DNA from: a virus
Lineage: Duplodnaviria; Caudoviricetes
Strand: one strand, 5' to 3'
DNA: 60,381 nt
IMG/VR virus record: IMGVR_UViG_3300015256_000001
Span: 1-60,381 of that record
The notes beneath the pieces were generated by a model. The model had not been told where the DNA came from. It did not search any database and saw nothing but the letters and a program-made list of their open reading frames with translations. Of this stretch, positions 1 to 54,961 are shown in pieces (the first letter of the stretch is position 1; each line of letters opens with the position of its first letter). Position numbers and translations under genes: made by a program.

Positions 1-123
1 CGACGTGATGTTATCGTCCAGAGCCACTGTGAACACCGTCGATTCGGCGAGGTTCAGCGTGAGCACGCCACTGACGATGTTGGGCGAAGACGTGATCTCG
101 CGTGGAGTCGCCGCTCGAAGCAC
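1..123. repeat. Terminal direct repeat (assembly circularisation overlap), copy 1
   Basis: 1-123 is identical to 60259-60381 and lies inside a continuous ORF. Confidence 0.97.
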
Positions 124-1308
124 CCAGTTCGTGCCATTCGACACCGCCATCACGGTTTCGTTCTTCGCCTTGAGCACGTATGTGGCCGCGCCCTCGAACG
201 TCTCCGCCGCGTTTGGGTCCACCGTCACGCTGTTGGCCGCTGTCGCATCGATCCGCTTCACGGTGATGCTCCGACCCTTGTAGCCCACCGCCGTGTAGAG
301 CGTGATGGTCGCAGACCCACTGGTGGCATCCACGAGGACGGTCACGTCTTCACCGTCCGTCGTCAGAACGGTGTAGTTGGCCGTCTTAGCCAGGACCGTG
401 CTCGCGATACTGACCCCATTCGTCGTGACCCAGTTCGCCCCGTCCGATACCGCTACCGCCGTGTCGCCGACACCGAGCACGAGCGTAGCCGAGCCTTCAA
501 TCGTCTCTGAAGCGTTGGGGTCGATGGTGACGGTGTTGGCCTCAGTCGTGTCCGTGCGCTTGACCGTGACCTTTCGGCCCTTGTGCCCTACGGCGGTGTA
601 GAGCGTAACCGTGAGTGACGCGCTGGTGGCATTCGCCAGGACCATGACATCGTCGCCGTCCTGGTAGGTCACGGTGTAGTCGGCTGTCTTCGAGAGCACC
701 CGTGACACCGTTGAGGCCTTGTTCAAGCCAATCCAGTTGGTGCCGTCTGACGCGATGGTGATGCCGTCGTATCTGGAGGCGATGACGTAGGTCGCTGCCC
801 CGTTGATCGTGTCGCCAGCATTGGGGTCAATCGTGACCGCGTTGGCCGAGCCATCGATCTTCACCACGCGAATCCTGAACCCATCGTTCCCGACTGCCGT
901 AAACGGCGTGATCGTGAACGCCGCGAGCGTGGCATCAGCGAGAATCAGCACGTCGCTGCCGTCTTCGACCGTGACCGTGTAGTTGGCCGTTTTGGTCAGG
1001 ATGGACATCTGACTGGACTCGCCGGCTCCAGACCCCTCCGACGTCGCGTTGTCCACGGTGTAGATCGGGTTGGTTGGCGGGTCCGTGTCCGTCGATGGCG
1101 ACAAGACGAACTTGTACGCGACACCAGGCGTAACGAAGATGTTCTCGAAGAGCCCTTCCGCCGAGGCGATGATGGGGTTTGTGTTCTCCGTCTCAAGGTC
1201 CGCATCGGAGTAGGTGTCGATCTTCGTCGTCGTTCCGGCGGCGTATGAGAAGAGTTTCGCCAGCGCGTAGTCAGGCACCCAGATCCGCAGTCCGCCTAGC
1301 AGTGGCAT
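1..1308 (-). CDS. Tail fibre/tailspike, 5' part (continues across the origin to 60034; about 510 aa in total). Not in the ORF track
   Basis: Manual translation from ATG 1308: MPLLGGLRIWVPDYALAKLFSYAAGTTTKIDTYSD..ENTNPIIA (head-binding-like N-terminus), then three ~90-aa knob repeats KTA[ND]YTV...DPNA...S[DN]G.NW; no stop down to base 1 and in frame with 60034..60381. Confidence 0.85.
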   Translation of the reverse strand, partial: MPLLGGLRIWVPDYALAKLFSYAAGTTTKIDTYSDADLETENTNPIIASAEGLFENIFVTPGVAYKFVLSPSTDTDPPTNPIYTVDNATSEGSGAGESSQMSILTKTANYTVTVEDGSDVLILADATLAAFTITPFTAVGNDGFRIRVVKIDGSANAVTIDPNAGDTINGAATYVIASRYDGITIASDGTNWIGLNKASTVSRVLSKTADYTVTYQDGDDVMVLANATSASLTVTLYTAVGHKGRKVTVKRTDTTEANTVTIDPNASETIEGSATLVLGVGDTAVAVSDGANWVTTNGVSIASTVLAKTANYTVLTTDGEDVTVLVDATSGSATITLYTAVGYKGRSITVKRIDATAANSVTVDPNAAETFEGAATYVLKAKNETVMAVSNGTNWVLRAATPREITSSPNIVSGVLTLNLAESTVFTVALDDNITS

Positions 1309-1315
1309 GGCATCC

Positions 1316-1582
1316 TCATTTCGCAGCCCAGCCCGTCGTGCCGGTACCGCTTTCCTTCACGTAGAACGTGGCCCCTGGCGTCCCGTCTGTGCGGTTGAAC
1401 TTCGACGACACTGGCCCGGCGATGACGCCCTCTGGATCGCCTTCGCCCCACATCTCGAATGCCGTCCCTGGTGACCCCTTGAATAGCGCGGCGAGGAACT
1501 GGCACCAGAGCACCCACGGCTTGGTCATGATGCCGGCCTTGTCCACTACCGGATTCGCGATGGCGAGGTGTGGAGCTGGCAT
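1316..1582 (-). CDS. Small tail-associated protein
   Basis: 88 aa; PVVDKAGIMTKPWVLW type N-terminus typical of the gene after gp10 homologues; abuts its neighbours. Confidence 0.65.
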   Translation of the reverse strand: MPAPHLAIANPVVDKAGIMTKPWVLWCQFLAALFKGSPGTAFEMWGEGDPEGVIAGPVSSKFNRTDGTPGATFYVKESGTGTTGWAAK

Positions 1583-1801
1583 CTATTCGATACTCGCTTC
1601 AATGTCCACCGAGGCATCGCCCCAGGCGTGCGTGATCGGCTCAGAGGTCGAGACTTCCATGACCCAATCATACCCGTCACCGAGGCGGTCGAGGCCCACA
1701 ACCGTGTCGTATTCACCGACGACCCCCTGATTGATCCAGATCTCAGACGACCAGGTCTTCCCGCCATCGACCGAATACCGGAACATGATGCGTGGTGGCA
1801 T
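1583..1801 (-). CDS. Stand-alone C-terminal module of P22 gp10-like tail hub
   Basis: PRIMFRYSVDGGKTWSSEIW..GEY..RLG resembles the C-terminal segment of gp10 homologues; 51/70 identical to the end of 1805..3970. Confidence 0.75.
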   Translation of the reverse strand: MPPRIMFRYSVDGGKTWSSEIWINQGVVGEYDTVVGLDRLGDGYDWVMEVSTSEPITHAWGDASVDIEASIE

Positions 1802-1804
1802 GGC

Positions 1805-3970
1805 CTAGTGCTCTGACGGCTCGATGTTAACAGACGCACTCCCCCAGGCATGGGTAATTGGGTCAGAGGTCGCCACTTCCAGTACCCACTTCTTCCCGTC
1901 TCCAAGCCGGTTGATTCCGGCCCGCGTCAGATACTCTCCGACATCACCTTGGTTGATCCACATCTCTGACGACCATGTCACACCGCCGTCCGTGGAATAT
2001 CGGAACATGATGCGCGGGTGGGCTTCCGCTTCGTCTGCAACCTCCGGCTCTGGCTCCGGCTCTGGCTCCGGGAATGAGCCGACGATGACCCAATAGTTAT
2101 ACGTCGAGGCCCCAACCGGAACCTGGAAGAGCCCAAGTGCGTCACCCTCCACATACTCCACGCCATCGCCGCTCACCACGCCGGTCGTGTCTGGGTCAGA
2201 GACGACGAGCGCATCGAGCGCCGTGGAGGCCGCATTCTTCCTGAGTTGGAACGTCTGTGAATTGCCACCACCTGGGGCCGCGCCGAGTGCGGCGTACATC
2301 ACCGATATCTCCAAGGCTCCAGCCGGTGTTGTCGAGAGGGACGGGATTGTGTGCTGAAACTCGGACTCAGACGCCGACGCGCCACTGTCATTTCCAGATA
2401 CCAGCCTCGCGCTTGAGGCCCCGGCGTTCTGCATGTACCCAGACACCATAAACCGACCAGCGGATCCGGCGTCGAGCCTGGCGCGAATGGTGGCGGCGTG
2501 ACGGACTAGGGACACAATCCCGGCATTCCGCTTGAACCCAACGATATCGACGAAATCGCCTGGCACCACAGCCAACTCGAACTGACGCCGGCCGAAGGCA
2601 TTCGAGAACGTGTCCACCACGAGCGTCGTCGTCGTGTCCACCGTCCCTCCTGTGCCATCCTGGATGATGTCGTTGACGACCAAGAAGTACTCCACGTTCG
2701 GGTCGAACGTCATCGCTATTTGATACTGAACCACCATCTCAGTGATCGTCATCGGCAAGCCGACGAGGGACTTGCCAGGTGTGGGGATCCCGGTGGCCCA
2801 CTGGCCAGTCGGATGCAAGATCGCACGCTGGAAGCCCACATCTACCGTGTTCGACCCTAACTCTTGATGACCGCCACCAAAGACATGCACTCGCTCTTCG
2901 CCAGTCTCGAGCAGCATTGTGGCAACGGCGAAGAGTGGCGTTGGCAGGTTCACCCCTCCTGTGTTTTCGTACTCCACCCGGATGCGTTGGTACTTGTAGA
3001 CCGCCAGCCCCATGTCTAGGTTCGCCGAACCAGTCACATCGGCAGACGTCAACGTCAGCGTGAATCCTGTCTCTTGCGCGAACAGGCCGCCTGCGCCGAC
3101 CGCTCCACCGGGCAGGATCTTCAACGTGACCTGTTGTGACCCGGTGAGAGGCTGGGACAATTTGACCGCGATGCTCTGGAGTGTCCCGTTGACAATCGCG
3201 ACATCGCCAAGCCGTTCTGGCAAGGCGTTGATGCCCACATACGGGAACCCACTACACGCCGTGTCGCCAGGGGTTAGGCCAGACAACGTCATGCGGCCGG
3301 TGAAGATGGGCTGGAACCCGCCACCAGTCAGCGCGGTAGACCCCTCCGGGATCAGGAACGAAAGCAGCGTCATCGGCCCGCCGGCCGACCTGGCAGCCGT
3401 AAAGGTGGGCTCGTCGTCCGCTGCCGCCAGATGGTTCACGATGATCCGAGGGCCGGTGAAGAATGAGGCCCCGCCAGTCAACGAGCTGGACACCCCAGGC
3501 GGATCCGTGAAGAACACGGCCGCAATCTGTCGGCCGTTCGGATCCCACGCATACGCCTTCCGCGCCAGAGACGTGGGCGAGAAGAAGTCCTCATACGTCG
3601 CCCCTGGAAGGATGATGCACCCATCGGAGGGTCCGTCCTGGACGTTGAAGGCGCACGTCGCGTAGTTGAACCCTGTCGGCGCCGTCGTGATGAACTCAAT
3701 TAGTTCAGTGCCGACGATGGCCGGGTTGACTAGCGAGAACACGTAGGCCGCATTGCCAGCGGCCGCCACCCCGGTCCAGTCCATCCAGGGCGTCATTTGT
3801 ATTCCGCCGAAGGTGCAAGTTTCGTTGTAGATGTTCGTGCTGTCGTACCGGTTCGTGCAGACGATCACGTAGATCGTCTTCCCGGCTTCAGAGGTGTGCG
3901 ACCACGGGGATGGATGCACCCCGACGCTTTCCGTACTCGACGCATTGGTGGGGACGCTTGGCCTAGCCAT
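1805..3970 (-). CDS. Large beta-rich passenger (adhesin-like) fused through a PEPEPE linker to a gp10 C-terminal module
   Basis: 721-aa ORF; G/T/S/V-rich repeated beta domains; last 70 aa are the gp10-like C-terminus. Confidence 0.75.
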   Translation of the reverse strand: MARPSVPTNASSTESVGVHPSPWSHTSEAGKTIYVIVCTNRYDSTNIYNETCTFGGIQMTPWMDWTGVAAAGNAAYVFSLVNPAIVGTELIEFITTAPTGFNYATCAFNVQDGPSDGCIILPGATYEDFFSPTSLARKAYAWDPNGRQIAAVFFTDPPGVSSSLTGGASFFTGPRIIVNHLAAADDEPTFTAARSAGGPMTLLSFLIPEGSTALTGGGFQPIFTGRMTLSGLTPGDTACSGFPYVGINALPERLGDVAIVNGTLQSIAVKLSQPLTGSQQVTLKILPGGAVGAGGLFAQETGFTLTLTSADVTGSANLDMGLAVYKYQRIRVEYENTGGVNLPTPLFAVATMLLETGEERVHVFGGGHQELGSNTVDVGFQRAILHPTGQWATGIPTPGKSLVGLPMTITEMVVQYQIAMTFDPNVEYFLVVNDIIQDGTGGTVDTTTTLVVDTFSNAFGRRQFELAVVPGDFVDIVGFKRNAGIVSLVRHAATIRARLDAGSAGRFMVSGYMQNAGASSARLVSGNDSGASASESEFQHTIPSLSTTPAGALEISVMYAALGAAPGGGNSQTFQLRKNAASTALDALVVSDPDTTGVVSGDGVEYVEGDALGLFQVPVGASTYNYWVIVGSFPEPEPEPEPEVADEAEAHPRIMFRYSTDGGVTWSSEMWINQGDVGEYLTRAGINRLGDGKKWVLEVATSDPITHAWGSASVNIEPSEH

Positions 3971-3977
3971 GGCCAGT

Positions 3978-5198
3978 CTACGTCACGACGCCGACGTCTA
4001 CGTTGACCTCGAACCGGTTGATGGTCATCTGACGCTGGTTCTGGTTCGCATGAGGCGAGCGGACCACCCGGCGAATCGGCTTGTCGTCGTCGTCGTACTT
4101 CGCCGTCGTGGACAACTCATAGATCGTGCCGTCGATCCGGCTCCCAACCAGATGCTTCTCGAACGCGTGACAGTGACACTGCCCGAGGTGTGGGTCCATG
4201 AACCCGGTCGCCGGATTCAGATACCCGCGCTCGTGCCATAGGTCCGTCGTGAGGTCGTAGACCCACGTCATGTGACCAGGGAAGCTCAGGACGTAGAACG
4301 TGTGCCCAGCGTCAAGGTAGGTCCACGCGTAGGCATCCTGGCCGGTCGAGTAGGTCTTCCAGATCGCCTCCACCGCATCGTGGCTGACGCGCACCGCGTT
4401 GTAGCCACGCGACATCGCCACATGCCTGGCGCCATCTTCCGTCTGCCCCAGCCAGAGTAGAGCTCCACCGACCTTGCAGAGCGTCTTCTGCGCCAGTAGG
4501 CCGTGCTCGATCAGGACGCCCTGAATCGGCGCGAACGTCACGAGCGCATCCCCGGTGTTGTACCAAACCTCCGCCGTCTTTGACCCAATGAGCCACATGT
4601 CCTTGCCGACTAACTCGAGACCTTGGATGTTGTCCGTGGTCTGGGTCTTCTCGGCGAGGTCGCCGGCCGACCACGTCAGCCCGTCAAACCGGCCGGAGAA
4701 CTGAAACCGCCTCGTGCCGAAGGCCGCGACGATGAAGTAGGAGTCCGAGTAAGACAGGCTGATGATATTCGCCGGGAAGTCGGAGTCCGTGATCTGCACG
4801 AACGAATCATCGGCCAAGGTGTGGATGTAGCCCAGCCCGCCACCCATCACCATGTTCTGCCCACCTCCGGATCCGTTCGTCGCAATCTTGACCGGCAGCG
4901 TGGACTGCACCACTGACCCGATCAGGAGCGAACTGCCGCTCGCGTAGAACCGGTAGTACTCCGACCCGCTGACCGCGTAGGCGTAACCGTCATGCGAGAA
5001 CAGCGCCGTGATCGGCCCAGTCCCAATCGTGGTGAAGGTCCGCGTACCAGGCGTGGGCGCGAACGTCATGGCGTAGGGCGGCCGCACACCCTCTCGGCGA
5101 TGCACAAGCGGATACAGGTTGAGCGCCTGTTGGCTACCGATTCTTGAGGACGGGAAGCGGTAGGTGCCCCCGACGAACCCATCGTACGGAACGATCAT
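3978..5198 (-). CDS. P22 gp10-like DNA stabilisation/tail hub protein, C-terminally truncated
   Basis: Propeller motifs PTPG..F, EVWYNTGD, GHTFYVLSFPG..TWVYDLTTDLWHER; position after the gp4-like gene; ends at ..VDVGVVT. Confidence 0.85.
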   Translation of the reverse strand: MIVPYDGFVGGTYRFPSSRIGSQQALNLYPLVHRREGVRPPYAMTFAPTPGTRTFTTIGTGPITALFSHDGYAYAVSGSEYYRFYASGSSLLIGSVVQSTLPVKIATNGSGGGQNMVMGGGLGYIHTLADDSFVQITDSDFPANIISLSYSDSYFIVAAFGTRRFQFSGRFDGLTWSAGDLAEKTQTTDNIQGLELVGKDMWLIGSKTAEVWYNTGDALVTFAPIQGVLIEHGLLAQKTLCKVGGALLWLGQTEDGARHVAMSRGYNAVRVSHDAVEAIWKTYSTGQDAYAWTYLDAGHTFYVLSFPGHMTWVYDLTTDLWHERGYLNPATGFMDPHLGQCHCHAFEKHLVGSRIDGTIYELSTTAKYDDDDKPIRRVVRSPHANQNQRQMTINRFEVNVDVGVVT

Positions 5199-5929
5199 GG
5201 CCGCCTGATCGAGTCCGAATAGGGGTCATACCACACGCCCATGACCCCGTCACGCCCGAGCGCACCGTCCGTCTCGAGCCGTGGCGGACCCTGATCCGTG
5301 AGTGCGGCGATGCTCGCCTCTGCCCGAATGAACGCCTGCTCCATCGCCCTAGTGACCGGCTTCCCGAACGCCTCCGCGATACGGATCTGGAGATCCGTTC
5401 GGAACAGTGCATGATACCCGTCAGGGTAGGTGTACTGCGTCGTCAGGTCGGCGAACCCTGAGATGGTCGGCAAGGCGAGGTAGAGCGTGGCGGCAGTCTG
5501 AGGCACCTCCCAGAAGTAGAGCGTGTTGTTCGTGACCCCAGTCTCCATGTAGACGTGGCAGGGATAATCCGCCTCTTCCGTCTTGTCGCCAATGTCGAAG
5601 TACTCGGCCTGAGTCAAGATGCCGATTGGCACCTCCTGCGTCTGATCGACTGGAAGCACGGCGGCATTCGCCAGGATGGTTGGCTTGGGCGTGACCGTGT
5701 AGTGGGCGCCAGTCGGGCCTATCGTGCGCGACACCTGGCCAGCCACGAGGGTGAAGGACTGGCGAGCGGCGGCGTAGATGCTCCGCCGCTTTTGCCTCCA
5801 CTCCTCGAACTGCTCTTCTAGAGCCACGAGCGCCATCGTCGCGTCCGGATCTGTCAGATGCCGGCCGACACCTATCACTCGGATGCCCTGAAGTGCCCGC
5901 GTGATGAGTTGTGCGGCCGTGAAGGTCAT
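5195..5929 (-). CDS. Head-to-tail adaptor (P22 gp4-like)
   Basis: T..QLITRAL..I.VIG N-terminus; YPDGY..L...L..RIAEAFG; synteny. Confidence 0.7.
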   Translation of the reverse strand: MTFTAAQLITRALQGIRVIGVGRHLTDPDATMALVALEEQFEEWRQKRRSIYAAARQSFTLVAGQVSRTIGPTGAHYTVTPKPTILANAAVLPVDQTQEVPIGILTQAEYFDIGDKTEEADYPCHVYMETGVTNNTLYFWEVPQTAATLYLALPTISGFADLTTQYTYPDGYHALFRTDLQIRIAEAFGKPVTRAMEQAFIRAEASIAALTDQGPPRLETDGALGRDGVMGVWYDPYSDSIRRP

Positions 5930-6336
5930 GGCGTCCCAGCCAGTGCCCGCTTGATCTGGTTGTCAATCGTGGCGAGAACGGTCTTCCGGCCACCATTCGG
6001 CCCGCCGGACTCGCGGTGTCTGATGCGCGTCAGTACGTCCACGTCACGAATCTGGATCAGCATCTTCCGGAGATCGGTGAAGTGAATCTGGCGCACATCA
6101 AGTTGGCCCTTGGGCTCAGGTACCGGTACCGGTATGGGCTCCGGCTCCGGCTCCGGTTCAGGTTCCGGTTCAGGCTCAGAGACAACGACCGGGGCCGCTG
6201 CCACTGGCTCGTGATAGAGCTTGTAGGCCTCGTCGTAGGTCGTGGCCCATCCGATCCGCTTGGCGAGCATCCGCTCCGCCTCGAGATTCTCGAAGACCTT
6301 CCCATTCACGTCCGCGTAGTGATACAGCCGTGTCAT
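5926..6336 (-). CDS. Hypothetical protein with (EP)n linker
   Basis: 136 aa, start/stop overlaps with neighbours, C-terminal RKTVLATIDNQI helix. Confidence 0.7.
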   Translation of the reverse strand: MTRLYHYADVNGKVFENLEAERMLAKRIGWATTYDEAYKLYHEPVAAAPVVVSEPEPEPEPEPEPEPIPVPVPEPKGQLDVRQIHFTDLRKMLIQIRDVDVLTRIRHRESGGPNGGRKTVLATIDNQIKRALAGTP

Positions 6337-48586: not shown

Positions 48587-51500
48587 TCAGTCCGTTTCCG
48601 GCTGAGGTGACGGTAATGGGCGCCGGCCTAGCGCCACCCTCGAGACGTCGATCATCTGGTTGCGGATGTTCCTAATCGCCGCCTGCTTCGCCTCTGGTTT
48701 CATCACGGCCGCCGGCAACGCCTGGAGAGACTTGATCCGCTTGCCAAGCACGCCAACGCGGTCCACCGCCAGCCGGATGTAGCGGGCGCGCTCCAGTGGG
48801 AGATCCGTCTCGGCTACCTGCTTGTCGGCAGCCTCATTGTTCCCCCTGGCCCGCTTCGACCGCACGGACGCCGTCAGTGTCTCGTAGGCCCTGGCGAGGT
48901 CGTAGAGGTCGCCGACGCTCTGCCCTGAGCCCATCATCTCGCCCGTGTCGTAGACCGTCCCGACCACCGGCAGATCGCGCATGGGGTCGAAGGACTTTGG
49001 CGTCTCGCCCTTCGCGAGGCCCACGACTGCATCTACGGCCTTGGCTGACGTGCGCCCCACTGACGTGGTCCAGCCGAACAGGATGTGGTCGATCTGGGCC
49101 GGGCTGAAGATTGGCAGGATCTTCTGAATGGTCTTCGCCGTCTCGGTCGTCCACTGCGAGTACTGGTCCTCGAGCGGTAGCCCTTGCACTTCCCATGGAC
49201 TCACAATCGGTGCATCGCGAAAGGCGGAGTAGTTCGCGAATGCCTCCAGGACCGGCATGATGGCTGTCGGCATCATGTTCAGCACGGTGCGCTTCGCGAA
49301 GTCTGGATCGTCGAAACCAGGGAACCAGTCCTCCTGCATCTGCTTGAACCGCTGCGGGTCGCCCTTCTTCATGTAGTCGAGCCCGGCCTCCATGATGTCG
49401 CCAGCGTAGGCGTAGTCGAACGGCTTGGCGATCTTGGCGTACCCTTCCGTCCCTGGCAGCTTGATGAACCAGTAGGCGTGCTTCTCCCACTCCGGCTTTT
49501 CCTCGTACTCCTTGTCGTCGCCTCGAAGGAACCAGAGAGCAGCCGAGAAGAACGCGATCGTGCCCAGCTTCAACAGCGTTCCCTCTGGGTCACGCTTGAA
49601 CGTCTCGCCCATTCGGACCCAGGACTGCACCTTCGCGTTGAGGAAGGCCTTGAACTGGCTGAACTCCTTCACGATGGTGCCGCCACGCTGGTAGTCCGTC
49701 GAGACGTCACGGGCAGCGAGGGCCGCCCTGGCGAGTATCGAATCGGATGTGCCAGCGTAGTCCTTGTCGCCCTCGAGTAGGCGCCGCATGACGCCACGCT
49801 CTTTGCCGCCAGCCTCCAGAGCCAACTTGAACTCGGCAAACCGTGTCGCCGACTCGACGGCCTGAGAGGCGTGCTGGAGCGCACTCCACGCGACCTTCAT
49901 CAGCTCCAGTGGATTCAGCACCGTCTGCGCCACTGATAACCTTTGGCCACTCAGTTGCCTCACGGCATCCTGCCGGTGACGCCGGTCACTCCCCACGAGC
50001 GCCGCCTGGGACACGCCAGACACGGCGAACAACTTGGCGGCTTCAGAACCTCGCGTCAACTCGATCATCGCAAGCACCTGATCGTAGACAGGAATCAGGC
50101 CGTACTTGGACTGGAGCCATGACACCAGGCTGTCTCGCGTGAAGTTCCTAATGATGAAGCTGGGCGTCGTCGTCGCCGTCGTCCTGAGCACGCTCGCGAC
50201 TCCAGCAAACCCAAGGCGGATGACACCGGCAGCATCACGCGGCCCCATCTGGGTGATCGCCTCGTACAGCCCCGTGTGGTTGACCTGCCAGAACTCCCGC
50301 TTGCCGTTGCGGATGAGCGTCACGATCTGCTCGCCGTTCGGCGCCACGTATGTCGCTGGCGTAAAGACCGTCACGAGCTGCTCAAATGCCTCGCTCAGGT
50401 TGTCGGGCAGATCCTCCATGCCGGCATCCTCGAGCGCCTTTTGGATCTCCTTCGTGAGCCGCGACAACTCGAACGTCGTCGGGATCTTATCCGGCGCCAC
50501 GCGGTCCATCCACTTGCCAGACGAGTGCTTCTTGTCGGTCGCCTTCTCGGCTGCTTCGGCGAGTGCCACCATGGCCCGGTTCTTCTCGACCATGTCCACG
50601 ATTGCGAAGGTGTTTCCTATGATGGACTCCAGTGGCGGTATCACCGTGAGCCCTGATCCGGTGGCCCGCTTGACTGGCACAGTGCGATTCGCCAACCTCC
50701 GAGCGACACCACTGAAGATACCCTCAGTCGCCTCCTGGACCCGCATAAGCGGGACGTATGACTCGTAGGCCAACGTGATCGCCTTGAACTGATCTGTCGA
50801 AAAGGCCCCTCGCGACCTCGCGTATTCGAGTAGCGCACTCTGGTACGCGTAGACCTTCTTGGCGGCTTCCTCGAACTTCGCGAAGTCTGGCCTGGCCCGC
50901 GCCTGGGCGATCATGTCGTCGGCCTGAGCCTTCGTCACGCCTGGGTTCTTCCCAACCTTCAGACGCTCCATCGCATGCACGGCGTAGAGGTAGTGCTCGA
51001 ACTCGGCGAGATGCTCCTTTACGCCTTCCAGGGCATCCGCAAGGCCGTCACTCAACTTCACCGCATCGGGGCCATAGACACCAGTCGTCAGGAACCCTTC
51101 AGCCTGTGAGGCCGATCCTTGGGCGAGGCGCGCGAGCACATACCCATCCGCCGCGTAGTCTCTCGGTTGGCCGCTACTCATGTCATCCATGGCAACGTCA
51201 ACCCAGGTGAACCGATCTATGGTCCTCGCAACCACATCGTGGATAGTAGCCTTCGGGTTCTCGGCCACCGCTCGCGCGAGGGACACGATCTGGTTGTCCC
51301 TAGACCGGTCCATCTTGAGCCGCAACTGGTCAGCCGGCGTCAGCGCCAGATACCCCATGAGCTGCGTCCTGACCCCATGGACCGCGTCACGCAACTTCGG
51401 CTGCTGCTCAAGCCTCCGCTCGAACTCGGCGAAGTACTTGGGCGCCTCATACTCGGCCGCTTCTGGGTCAGACGCATAGAGCACGAAGAACTCTGCCGCG

Positions 51501-54500
51501 CCCTCTTTCCTGACCGTGGGCGGATCATAGCCTGGCATGGACGTGCGCTGCCCAAGTGTCTCTAGCTCACCCTTCCACCGCTTGTCGTGCCTCTTGATCC
51601 TCAAGACGGCAATATCGAAGTCGTGGCCCGCCTCGTGGACGGCGGCCCGGAGATCCTCCGCCACCTTGAGGCGGATCATGCGCGCCCTGTTCTTGTAGAT
51701 TCCGCGCGCCCCACGCATCCCTATGCGGCCGGCTCGAATGGGGACGCGTTCGAGTGCAGCCGTGAGGCTCTTGATGATGGCGGACGGGCTCATCGACGCA
51801 TCGCGTTGTGGCGTTGGCCCTCGCGGCTTGGTGAACGCCGGGACGCCCTGATCGTACTCGCCAGGCATCCGCGACACGTCATCGTCCTCGAACTCGTCCG
51901 GGTCGAACGACGCGTCACCGTCAGCTTCTTCTTCTGAATCTGACTCCACGCCAGATCGCCACGAATCGCGCCACCATGGCGTCCCCGGCTTCATATCGGC
52001 GCGCTTGGCCAACTCACTCGTGCCTGGGTGGGTGACCCCCTTGACACCAACATCGCCAAGGCGGGCAATGTCGTCGAGTGCCGCGAGAAGATCATCCTGC
52101 GTCTCGATGTGACTGAAACGCGGATCCTGCTGGAGGCTCGTCACGATGTCGTCCACGCTGAACCCGGCTTGACGTTTCCCGCTCACCTTGTCGTTCTTCT
52201 TCGTCCGGAACACATTCGGCACGCCACCAAAATTGCCGTATGGCCCGGCCCATTCCCGGAGACGACGCAGTTCTCCAGCCAGCCCACCTCCGCCTTCGGC
52301 CTGAACGCTGATGCCGCCGGCAGCCACGATGGCCTCGAGCAATTCGCGTGGGTTGTATCCGGACTCAGCTACCTCGGCGTCGAGCGATTCGATGAAGTCC
52401 ACGCGAGCCTCGAACTCGGCCCGCACCGCTTCGACGTCTACGTCTGGGTCAACTCGGACGGCGTCGGCGACGATGGCGGCGTAGACGTCTGAGTAGTGGT
52501 CGTCGCGTCTGGCTTTGGCGGCTTTGGCCGACTCGACTCGGCCTGGCGGAGCACTCGCCGCAACGCGACGGACGGGTATACTCCCGTCTTCACGAGGCGT
52601 CTCACTTCTTGCTGGTTGGCTTGGCTCAACATTGGGTGCGTCTCCTCCAAATAATCCGCCCTGGCTACCCTTCGTCGCCGTCGAGGCCTCACTGGATAGG
52701 CTGAACGGCACATCTAGTTGCGGTGTCGGGATGTTCTGCTCACGCACGTTTTCAGCGCCAGCTAGACGCGGCTGCAACTCGCCCGTGTCGAGCACGTCAA
52801 CGACAGGCGCGGAGACTGGCGGCTCAACGGCCGGCGCGGACACGGCCTCTGCTTCAGCCGGCGGCTTGGCTATCTTCCCAGCCGCCGTGACCGCCTCACC
52901 GTACCGATCAATCGCCTTCCCGTAGTCGTCGAACTTGACGAGGCTCACGAGGTTGCCTGAGTCTTCGTCCATCACGCGTATGAAGCCGGCGCGGCCAGAT
53001 TGATACAACTCGTACGACACGCCGTCGATGGATCGGTTTGCCTTCCTGGCCACAGGGCTGCCCATAAGGCTAGAGGCAATCTTCACAGGCGCAGGAGCGT
53101 CTACGGCTGGCGCTGGTTCTATTGGCGCCGCTACCGGCTCAGTGACCGGCGCTGCCGGTGGAGCCGGCGCGAACATCGCATTCGCATCGGCCACCATCGC
53201 CATTGGGTCGCCGTCAGCCACCGACTTGAACCATGCCTTGGACTTGTCGCCATACCGATACCCGGCCCGTTCCATCAACCGGCGCGTGGCGAGATCCGGC
53301 TTCTGATCCTCTGGGAAGGCAATCTCGACCGTCTTCCGCTCTGGGTTGTAGCGCGCAACTGGCCCGGTCGCGATTGGCGCCGCCGGCTCGCTTTGAGGCG
53401 CAGTAGGAGACTCCGGCGCGGGCTGTACCGGTACCGGTATGGGTGCCGTGACTGGGGCCGTGACGGGTGGCTCAACCGCTGGAGGCGCGACAGGCGGTTC
53501 AACCACAGGAGCCGGTGTCGGAGGCTCCCTAACAGGAGTAGGCACTACCGGTGCCGGCGCAGGTTGAATCGGTGGAGCCACCGGAGGCGCGACAGGCTGA
53601 GGCTCAGTCGGCGCGATGGGTGGCGCGACCGGCGTCGGTGCAACCGGCGGAACTACCGTCGCCGCTGGAGGCTGTGCCGGCGTGGCTACTGGAGCCGTCA
53701 GCGCGCTCTTGATCTGCGCTCCGCTGCCCATGACCGCACCGGCAAGCGTGCCCATCACGAGTGCTTGGTCTACGCCGGTTTCCCATGGACGCCCGGCAGC
53801 CTTGTTCTCGAGGATCGTCTCCTGAACCGATTGCGGCAGTTCTTCGAGTACCGCTTCCTGGACGGTGCCGGCCACAACCGCCTTCGTGAGCGACTTACGC
53901 GCGGCTGGGTCCTTGATCGCCGCCGCGAGCATCGTGTCCACATCCACGATCCCCCACGACTTCGCCAGCTTGGCCCCGAGCGCGCCAATGACGCTCGTCC
54001 CAGCACCAGCCGCTACAGATAGAGCCGACTGTGCCGGCGTAAGCGTGCCGTCTGGCGCAGCCTGCCTCAACGAGGACGCCATCTGCCCGGCGGTCACGGC
54101 GCCTTCGCCAGCCGCCGCACTCGCGACGAGTGGTAGCCCAGCCTTAATGAGTCCGCGCGCCACGCCGGCTCCACCCACCATGGATGGCGCTGACTCCACC
54201 ACGTTATGCACGATGGTCGAAGGGTTCTTGATCGCCGCGATGGCCGTCTCGAGGATGCCATCAGCTTCTTCGACTGACCGGTTGGCCTGCTTCTGCTGGT
54301 CGCTGTACCAGCTACTCAGGATCTCCTTCGCGAGGGCTGGTTGGAATCCGACTGATTCGAGCGCCTTGCCGACTCTCCCTCCGGTGGGGATGTCGGCGAG
54401 ACCCACCACGGCCTCTGGGATACCAATCGCGCCCTTGACGGCAGAGATGCCTAGATCCGCGACACGCTCAAGGAATGTTGCCGGCTTAGCCTGTGGCGGC

Positions 54501-54961
54501 TCAACATACCGCCCGCCGTGCTTCAGCATCAAGGCCTCGAACGGATCTTCGGAGGCAGGCTCAGGCTTCGCGGCAAGTTGTGCGGCCGACTTCTCGTCCC
54601 ACCCAAGCGTCACCAGTTCGGCCGCGTCCTTCGCTCTCGGCGTCCCAGGCACACGCTCGCCGGTCTGCACATGAAACCCGCCAACTACGATCTGCGGATG
54701 CCCAGGCTTCTTGAAGTCAGATGGCCAATGGCCCGTGGCATCAGGAGCCGCACCAGCCTTGAATGCCGCACGGTAGTCGTACTGCTGCTGAGGGCTGTCC
54801 GGATCTGCGTCGAGCCCGTAGCGTTTCGCGGCATCTGAGTACCACGCCCGGAATGCGATCTCGTCTGGCTGCGGCCGCGTGGGCGGAGGAGGCGCCGGCT
54901 CGACATACCGGCCCCCATGCTTGAGCATGAGAGCTTCAAACGGATCGACTTGTGACGGCAT
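48587..54961 (-). CDS. Giant ejected polyvalent protein (LPD38-like C-terminus, zincin HExxH domain)
   Basis: 2124 aa; AAVHEAGH..EGAAEF; YEEKPEWEKHAYW..IAKPF; Pro-rich linkers; follows the ejection genes. Confidence 0.8.
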   Translation of the reverse strand: MPSQVDPFEALMLKHGGRYVEPAPPPPTRPQPDEIAFRAWYSDAAKRYGLDADPDSPQQQYDYRAAFKAGAAPDATGHWPSDFKKPGHPQIVVGGFHVQTGERVPGTPRAKDAAELVTLGWDEKSAAQLAAKPEPASEDPFEALMLKHGGRYVEPPQAKPATFLERVADLGISAVKGAIGIPEAVVGLADIPTGGRVGKALESVGFQPALAKEILSSWYSDQQKQANRSVEEADGILETAIAAIKNPSTIVHNVVESAPSMVGGAGVARGLIKAGLPLVASAAAGEGAVTAGQMASSLRQAAPDGTLTPAQSALSVAAGAGTSVIGALGAKLAKSWGIVDVDTMLAAAIKDPAARKSLTKAVVAGTVQEAVLEELPQSVQETILENKAAGRPWETGVDQALVMGTLAGAVMGSGAQIKSALTAPVATPAQPPAATVVPPVAPTPVAPPIAPTEPQPVAPPVAPPIQPAPAPVVPTPVREPPTPAPVVEPPVAPPAVEPPVTAPVTAPIPVPVQPAPESPTAPQSEPAAPIATGPVARYNPERKTVEIAFPEDQKPDLATRRLMERAGYRYGDKSKAWFKSVADGDPMAMVADANAMFAPAPPAAPVTEPVAAPIEPAPAVDAPAPVKIASSLMGSPVARKANRSIDGVSYELYQSGRAGFIRVMDEDSGNLVSLVKFDDYGKAIDRYGEAVTAAGKIAKPPAEAEAVSAPAVEPPVSAPVVDVLDTGELQPRLAGAENVREQNIPTPQLDVPFSLSSEASTATKGSQGGLFGGDAPNVEPSQPARSETPREDGSIPVRRVAASAPPGRVESAKAAKARRDDHYSDVYAAIVADAVRVDPDVDVEAVRAEFEARVDFIESLDAEVAESGYNPRELLEAIVAAGGISVQAEGGGGLAGELRRLREWAGPYGNFGGVPNVFRTKKNDKVSGKRQAGFSVDDIVTSLQQDPRFSHIETQDDLLAALDDIARLGDVGVKGVTHPGTSELAKRADMKPGTPWWRDSWRSGVESDSEEEADGDASFDPDEFEDDDVSRMPGEYDQGVPAFTKPRGPTPQRDASMSPSAIIKSLTAALERVPIRAGRIGMRGARGIYKNRARMIRLKVAEDLRAAVHEAGHDFDIAVLRIKRHDKRWKGELETLGQRTSMPGYDPPTVRKEGAAEFFVLYASDPEAAEYEAPKYFAEFERRLEQQPKLRDAVHGVRTQLMGYLALTPADQLRLKMDRSRDNQIVSLARAVAENPKATIHDVVARTIDRFTWVDVAMDDMSSGQPRDYAADGYVLARLAQGSASQAEGFLTTGVYGPDAVKLSDGLADALEGVKEHLAEFEHYLYAVHAMERLKVGKNPGVTKAQADDMIAQARARPDFAKFEEAAKKVYAYQSALLEYARSRGAFSTDQFKAITLAYESYVPLMRVQEATEGIFSGVARRLANRTVPVKRATGSGLTVIPPLESIIGNTFAIVDMVEKNRAMVALAEAAEKATDKKHSSGKWMDRVAPDKIPTTFELSRLTKEIQKALEDAGMEDLPDNLSEAFEQLVTVFTPATYVAPNGEQIVTLIRNGKREFWQVNHTGLYEAITQMGPRDAAGVIRLGFAGVASVLRTTATTTPSFIIRNFTRDSLVSWLQSKYGLIPVYDQVLAMIELTRGSEAAKLFAVSGVSQAALVGSDRRHRQDAVRQLSGQRLSVAQTVLNPLELMKVAWSALQHASQAVESATRFAEFKLALEAGGKERGVMRRLLEGDKDYAGTSDSILARAALAARDVSTDYQRGGTIVKEFSQFKAFLNAKVQSWVRMGETFKRDPEGTLLKLGTIAFFSAALWFLRGDDKEYEEKPEWEKHAYWFIKLPGTEGYAKIAKPFDYAYAGDIMEAGLDYMKKGDPQRFKQMQEDWFPGFDDPDFAKRTVLNMMPTAIMPVLEAFANYSAFRDAPIVSPWEVQGLPLEDQYSQWTTETAKTIQKILPIFSPAQIDHILFGWTTSVGRTSAKAVDAVVGLAKGETPKSFDPMRDLPVVGTVYDTGEMMGSGQSVGDLYDLARAYETLTASVRSKRARGNNEAADKQVAETDLPLERARYIRLAVDRVGVLGKRIKSLQALPAAVMKPEAKQAAIRNIRNQMIDVSRVALGRRPLPSPQPETD

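Follow-up and report, generated by a model that had tools for sequence, protein, structure and literature searches.

A P22-type tail hub gene that stops short of its C-terminal module, and two downstream copies of that module, in an uncultured phage from freshwater sediment

In P22-like phages the tail hub is regarded as a conserved component made of one chain, to which spikes or fibres bind non-covalently. The described members of the family (PF11134 Phage_stabilise; phrog_578), P22 gp10, Sf6 gp8 and Pa223 gp59, are single chains of about 470-510 amino acids (aa). According to the Sf6 paper, the hub consists of an interrupted six-blade propeller and an apical insertion domain, which is formed by the N- and C-terminal extensions, is lamin B1-like and binds between two adaptors. 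In the Pa223 preprint, the insertion domain comprises residues 2-46 and 403-512 and binds the adaptor rings, and the fibres are attached to a separate loop of the hub; in these hubs spikes or fibres bind non-covalently, in Pa223 to that fibre attachment loop. Here, a hub gene of the same family is described from IMGVR_UViG_3300015256_000001, the complete 60,381-bp IMG/VR record of an uncultured freshwater sediment phage with direct terminal repeats (the window). In contrast to the described hubs, the hub chain in the window is cut inside the insertion domain and its end piece is found on two other genes. Three consecutive open reading frames (ORFs) are concerned: the truncated 406-aa hub, termed hub N; a 721-aa ORF with one copy of the missing end module (C') at its C-terminus, termed the loaded plug; and a 72-aa ORF holding the other copy, termed the bare plug.

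Membership of hub N in the family was evident from profile comparisons. Against phrog_578 (head closure Hc3, P22 gp10 family, 486 positions), hub N matched positions 8-398 with an E-value of 6.3e-75, and a profile of hub N with 35 homologues matched the solved structures of P22 gp10 (8tvr_S, 4e-13; 8eap_G, 1.7e-11) and Sf6 gp8 (7sg7_T, 1.8e-11), as well as two closer solved hubs, 7eeq_1 and 9vyg_M. Our own hmmscan against Pfam gave nothing for hub N at E<=0.1; the precomputed label of the protein collection is PF11134.14 for it and for all its listed homologues. The chain ends at about profile position 398 (..NRFEVNVDVGVVT-TAG) and is about 75 residues too short. The last 70 or so positions of phrog_578 are instead encoded twice downstream: the 72-aa ORF covers positions 405-470, and the 721-aa protein covers positions 401-472 with its residues 648-719. 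The positions of the three ORFs agree with those given in the initial annotation. Copy C' also matched positions 525-593 of phrog_19101. The nearest homologues, P0006, P0007 and P0009 (64%, 59% and 53% identity; 483-484 aa), are intact, and in the alignment each runs as one chain through a Gly-rich loop ('..GTAASSGQGSNP..') into the module. All homologues from P0006 to P0026, with identities down to 43%, are 441-492 aa long, mostly 471-492 aa.

At the first junction the sequence reads ..GTG ACG TAG, ACTGGCC, ATG, with the ATG in the +1 frame and a TGA in the frame of the 721-aa ORF at 3985-3983. Simple readthrough therefore cannot fuse hub N and the 721-aa ORF, and the earlier argument from the 7-nt gap and the out-of-frame ATG is borne out by the sequence; only a +1 shift at ACG-TAG-A could join the two. 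At the second junction (TAG GCC ATG) the stop of the 721-aa ORF and the start of the 72-aa ORF share a frame. All three genes end in TAG (3978-3980, 1805-1807 and 1583-1585). The use of TAG as a sense codon was considered and rejected, as the hub frame runs into a second TAG five codons on and differs from the frame of the 721-aa ORF, and as TGA, TAG and TAA are all in use in the window (43, 14 and 8 times, respectively, among 65 greedily chosen ORFs).

The break was seen again in contigs of other runs. Contigs (Logan) from four runs were aligned to positions 1500-5300; as contigs and not raw reads were compared, rare variants would have escaped notice. Run X1 is probably the source, and X2, X3 and X4 belong to other samples and studies, possibly of one campaign. 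Across 3960-3990, the place where an indel error would fuse the ORFs, X2 record 6, X3 record 14 and X4 record 24 displayed 0 other letters and 0 gaps, and the hub break is therefore not an assembly artefact. X4 record 18 spans 1795-1810, that is, the junction of the 721-aa and 72-aa ORFs, as well as the junction of the 72-aa ORF with the following 88-aa ORF. A variant of the 721-aa protein differing by one residue was found on a separate 2557-bp contig, an identical 72-aa ORF on 2 contigs of other assemblies, and the same protein sequences are recorded in JGI, Logan and ENA assemblies.

The two module copies are identical in 51/68 residues by BLASTP and in 51/70 by our own alignment, the latter being the value of the initial annotation, which had also regarded both as intact. 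At the nucleotide level 144/210 positions are identical, and the differences are distributed 16/9/41 over the three codon positions (41/66 at third positions). The proportions of synonymous and nonsynonymous differences (pS and pN) were 0.70 and 0.20, respectively, with a ratio of nonsynonymous to synonymous rates (dN/dS) of ~0.11. Silent sites are near saturation at this low ratio; both copies are therefore kept by selection, and both are under purifying selection. A tree built from 24 C-terminal pieces placed the copies as sisters (99/94 support) within the P0006 clade, P0006 being the intact hub nearest to the window. The copies thus arose by duplication within the lineage of the window, early enough for the silent sites to have become saturated. 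The branch of the bare copy was short (0.064) compared with that of C' (0.39), and among 22 intact homologues 18 were nearer to the bare copy and 4 to the loaded one. Of the two, the bare ORF has thus remained the more conservative, and this speaks against its being a relic in decay. The unequal branches suggest that the affinities of the two plugs may differ.

The initial annotation had treated the missing 70 residues as a generic tail. Judged by the Sf6 and Pa223 structures, they belong instead to the C-terminal half of the apical insertion domain, which docks on the adaptor, and make up the final stretch of this domain. Modelled as a complex, hub N and the 72-aa ORF reached an interface score (ipSAE) of 0.83 in all three runs, the best of 3 controls scoring 0.00; by rough counts, made with our own alignments, the mark of 0.83 was reached by 58/80 solved complexes and by 2/110 mismatched pairs. 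The runs agreed in >=92% of contacts, with a predicted local distance difference test (pLDDT) value of at least 78 for the partner. Modelled contacts involved residues 1-48 and 364-401 of hub N and residues 5-70 of the module, including a modelled antiparallel pairing of hub N 375-384 with module 46-53. The predicted complex thus matches what would be expected from the published hub structures.

A related arrangement exists in an isolated phage, the Xylella phage Xfas53 (NC_013599). Its hub is split before the same ~70-aa module, and gp37 is a free 72-aa module as in the window; gp37 was matched by the hidden Markov model of the module (E 1.8e-13), is coupled to gp36 by an ATGA overlap and is labelled 'conserved phage protein' in the record. 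Xfas53 has one module copy, compared to two in the window, and its additional ~240 aa (a He_PIG immunoglobulin domain), located at the same loop, are on the hub N chain gp36, whereas the passenger of the window is on the plug chain.

Split hubs carrying the passenger on the plug were found in a clade with hubs of ~375-380 aa. An IMG/VR scan seeded by this clade gave 80 loci. The module is carried by a single separate ORF at 47 of them and by two separate ORFs at 4; hub and module are in one ORF at 16 loci, no module was found within at least 1500 nt downstream at 7, and 6 end too early. Several of the 80 are near-duplicates, and the module ORFs separate from the hub ORF number 55 but amount to 46 distinct proteins. 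The 51 split loci pair a hub N with a separate passenger-module ORF of 350-870 aa, in which the module is likewise at the extreme C-terminus behind a variable passenger. The window fits this pattern, with a start 7 nt past the stop and the module at residues 652-721 of 721, and locus L030 has the same spacing (+8) between hub stop and next start. By our own count, the start of the module gene overlaps the hub stop or lies <=8 nt from it at 30/51 split loci (ATGA, TGATG, TAATG, TAGATG), and all three frame relations were seen; overlapping junctions in every frame relation fit coupled separate genes and not a recoding signal. All of the 35 passenger-module proteins tested match phrog_578 at their end, 29 match phrog_19101 ('unknown function'), and the only Pfam families detected were DUF5979 (3), DUF7601 (2), DUF11 (1) and SpaA_4 (1). 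At loci L054, L056, L057, L059-L061 and L063-L068 an additional ORF of ~50 codons (~6120-6290) was noticed between the hub N and passenger-module genes, overlapping the hub stop by ATGA.

Split-hub relatives with differing passengers are thus present at 51/80 loci of one clade, but the cut is in these ~30 residues earlier, before the 'IRRxRR' strands (consensus '..IRRLRR..'), and their plug is ~105 aa. In the window the corresponding 'PIRRVVRSPH...NRFEVNVDVG' stays on the hub N chain and the cut falls in the next loop. As the N part groups with otherwise intact hubs, the fission in the window looks, from these sequence comparisons, independent of that in the split-hub clade.

The co-occurrence of a bare and a loaded plug, proposed in the initial annotation for this locus, recurs elsewhere. 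In L018/L019 a 472-aa loaded plug with a TGATG overlap is followed by a 111-aa bare piece beginning at the cut site of the clade, and in L070/L071 a 124-aa bare piece precedes a loaded plug of 537-540 aa. The paralogues of L070 and L071 have 69-72% identity, with pS of 0.57-0.74 compared to pN of 0.21-0.23. Counting the window, such pairs are present in three lineages and at two cut sites, and these gene pairs offer the strongest support for the idea that both forms may be needed together.

At E<=0.001 the module profile picked up 2548 proteins in a set of 1.84 billion representatives; generic BNR-repeat proteins with several short matches account for many of these. Full-length matches in a single stretch included small ORFs starting with Met, namely P0230 (75 aa), P0156 (94 aa), P0233 (97 aa) and P0248 and P0269 (both 92 aa), and two proteins, P0137 (177 aa) and P0183 (216 aa), that contain two modules in tandem. 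Among the 80 metagenome loci closest to hub N of the window, 57 were canonical, 14 had a 60-70-aa insert in the loop, none (0) had a separate module ORF, 2 on short contigs were without a module and 7 ended too early. Insertions without a break are exemplified by P0061 (704 aa), in which Gly_rich_2 occupies residues 421-626 at the loop where the window is cut; P0061 and the other one-chain hubs with loop insertions have no second module, unlike the window. Two hub homologues, P0027 (399 aa, on a 2675-bp contig) and P0098 (417 aa, on a 40.6-kb contig), end at or just past the loop of the window, P0098 stopping inside the module; these may be further fissions or errors.

The passenger of the 721-aa protein consists of an N-terminal region and three repeat domains. 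The repeats are homologous to each other (hhalign probability 91-96.5%, E 1e-6 to 9e-10) and are related to the stand-alone viral proteins P0002 and P0003 and to the passengers that are joined to the module in L054-L068 and L011, with 25-28% identity over a stretch of ~375 aa. For residues 1-210 a weak structural neighbour, a 'Minor tail protein' cluster, was found at a template modelling (TM) score of 0.45, which is a lead only. ESM Atlas feature matches (0.79-0.83) were under the usable bar, and the structural neighbours were unnamed viral clusters. When the model with a mean pLDDT of 46 was compared with the PDB by Foldseek, single-chain C1q, adiponectin and TNF-type trimers came out on top; with TM of 0.13-0.24 and a root mean square deviation of ~20 A, these too are a lead only. 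Speculatively, the three tandem beta-domains may come together as a pseudo-trimeric knob within one chain, in keeping with a 1:1 ratio of passengers to hub subunits. Most probably the passenger binds the host or decorates the tail; the label 'adhesin', used in the initial annotation, is inferred from its position and architecture.

Taken together, the locus is on balance probably the product of a real gene fission of a P22-gp10/Sf6-gp8-type hub, completed by a bare or a passenger-loaded plug. The cut would fall within the apical insertion domain, in a loop of its C-terminal half, and what is left on hub N would be the six-blade propeller with the N-terminal extension and the first of the C-terminal strands. 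The bare plug would supply the end module as a 72-aa protein, and the loaded plug would supply the same module on a Pro/Glu linker behind the passenger with its N region and three beta-domains. On a hub subunit with a loaded plug, the passenger would sit where hub and adaptor meet, on the outer side of the tail. Completion in trans, as proposed initially, is made plausible by the complex model, the published hub structures, the free module of Xfas53 and the many phages with a hub N and a passenger-module gene, and from the model and the structures the pieces would be expected to fold together. Both plugs are presumably used, and the passenger presumably binds the host. Mixed plugs, as in the window, L018/L019 and L070/L071, could set the number or the pattern of passengers, such as an alternating 3+3 arrangement. 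The full combination, in which a host-binding protein would be attached by fold completion, a subunit would fold or join the tail only when plugged, and bare and loaded plugs would share the six positions, is put forward tentatively, as less likely than not. Fold completion of this kind has a parallel in the chaperone-usher pili, where donor-strand complementation completes an incomplete Ig-like (immunoglobulin-like) sandwich by strands of a partner protein. The proteins are unrelated, and in the window about five strands rather than one would be donated, to anchor a passenger on the tail.

Several observations weigh against this interpretation. The split hub and its plugs are known here from DNA, and no RNA run appeared among the runs listed for the sequence, which weighs neither way. 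The complex score was obtained with the 72-aa copy alone and may reflect memory of solved single-chain hubs, that is, likeness and not binding. At 47/51 split loci one module ORF was seen within the flanks examined, and a bare plug is not generally needed. Split hubs are a minority, as in a module-seeded IMG/VR sample hub and module were in one ORF at 79/80 loci, and no homologue shorter than 441 aa occurred among P0006-P0026. The exact arrangement of the window was not found again, either among the 80 metagenome loci closest to hub N, in the module-seeded sample or in the single-protein scans (hub N against viral contigs, the 721-aa protein against metagenome contigs), the records nearest the window possibly being outside the search set; with no second genome of this arrangement, its conservation therefore cannot be shown. 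By eye, no obvious Shine-Dalgarno sequence precedes either plug ORF. A Pfam scan of the passenger found no family, and AlphaFold2 gave no confident fold for the 721-aa protein (mean pLDDT 34 with 3 rows and 46 with 12 rows).

One of the plugs might be a leftover: an intact hub gene would have received a passenger-module cassette by recombination, one of the two copies (C' or the 72-aa ORF) would be a decaying relic, and only the other would complete the hub. The closest hubs are intact, so that the fission is specific to the lineage of the window; the passenger is kin to those of a different, split-hub clade, as fits the acquisition of a cassette; and one module ORF suffices at most split loci. 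A decaying copy is, however, hard to reconcile with a dN/dS of ~0.11 at near-saturated synonymous sites, with two intact ORFs each having its own ATG, with the recurrence of bare and loaded pairs in two other lineages, or with a bare copy that has the shortest branch of its clade and is nearer than C' to most of the intact homologues. We regard a leftover plug as unlikely.

Recoding would rejoin the pieces instead, by a +1 shift at ACG-TAG-A yielding a 1130-aa hub with the passenger inside the chain, as in the insertion form P0061, by readthrough of the 721-aa TAG yielding two tandem modules, or by both. Three consecutive genes end in TAG, a codon that closes only 14/65 window ORFs; the 721-aa stop and the 72-aa start are in frame; and tandem two-module proteins (P0137, P0183) and one-chain insertion forms (P0061) exist elsewhere. 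Yet no slippery or known +1 shift motif was seen by eye at the junction, the 721-aa ORF has its own ATG, all three stops are used in the window, and the ordinary overlapping junctions at 30/51 split loci, in three frame relations, are explained by no single rule, which makes recoding distinctly improbable. Still less can be said for a sequencing or assembly artefact, with the hub really one ORF and its stop an indel error. The window comes from a single metagenome assembly at ~9x word depth, but contigs of three other runs and samples are identical at the junction, the same protein sequences are recorded in the JGI, Logan and ENA assemblies, and an indel cannot account for a passenger gene of 2.2 kb or for the module being present a second time; this explanation is largely refuted and retains hardly any likelihood. 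A real fission of the hub gene is the explanation that we prefer.

Features of the split hub locus, with positions in the window
Feature	Position	Strand	Description
Hub N	3978..5198	-	406 aa; N-terminal extension, beta-propeller and initial strands of the apical insertion domain's C-terminal half
Spacer ACTGGCC	3971..3977	-	7 nt, from hub N stop to ATG of the 721-aa ORF; next ORF in +1 frame; present in contigs of 4 runs
721-aa ORF	1805-3970	-	Passenger N region, three beta-domains, linker and module C'
Passenger N-terminal region	3239..3970	-	Residues 1-244; unrelated to the later repeats (hhalign probability 0.1-0.2%)
Three tandem beta-rich domains	2072..3238	-	About residues 245-395, 396-530 and 531-633
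Pro/Glu-rich linker	2018..2071	-	Residues 634-651, PEPEPEPEPEVADEAEAH, 18 residues (translation)
Module copy C' (loaded plug)	1805..2017	-	Residues 652-721 of the 721-aa protein and TAG stop
72-aa ORF (bare plug)	1583..1801	-	Own ATG 3 nt past the 721-aa TAG; own TAG abuts the next ATG

The record has a G+C content of ~62% and most of its genes are on the minus strand. Upstream of the split hub, on the same strand, are genes for the portal (phrog_156), the scaffold (phrog_8865) and the major head protein (phrog_283), and the gene order is therefore that of a P22-like head-tail module; the hubs of P22, Sf6 and Pa223 share this neighbourhood. Between the head genes and the hub lies a gene for which the only PHROG match is of unknown function.

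Other ORFs nearby were noticed for their composition or position. The 88-aa ORF at 1316-1582 (-), whose ATG abuts the TAG of the 72-aa ORF, displays weak PHROG matches to C-terminal parts of far longer families of unknown function (phrog_32123, positions 337-389 of 532) and could represent a further small fragment from a larger tail protein. Adjoining the plug region downstream, the ORF at 1-1308 (-) runs off the start of the window and encodes at least 436 aa with three tandem repeats of ~95 aa (pattern in the translation '..KTANYTV..DG.DV..TLYTAVG.KGR..TVKR.D..AN.VT.DPNA.ET..G.AT..'); it is probably a fibre or spike and would be a second tail appendage besides the passenger. The 136-aa ORF at 5926-6336 (-) contains a long (EP)n/PV linker of the same type as in the 721-aa protein, with a TonB_N polyproline match (E 6.4e-5) below the cut-off. 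Finally, the 2124-aa ORF at 48587-54961 (-) may encode an internal virion protein or an ejection protein.

The hub architecture recurs in other phages and is apparently undescribed. No described split hub turned up in the literature, of which subscription journals and supplements were beyond reach; the accessible part of the PhiGT1 paper discusses length variation of the hub (tubeB) and contains no mention of a split. If the interpretation holds, fold completion in place of docking would be a new principle of attachment for tail proteins. It would also act as an assembly checkpoint, since adaptor binding would be limited to plugged subunits. As the module is kept while passengers vary widely between phages, the hub would be a natural modular display site. 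The three small genes, expressible in E. coli, would make a simple system for testing it, and the host-range modules of many uncultured podophages would become recognisable by sequence alone.

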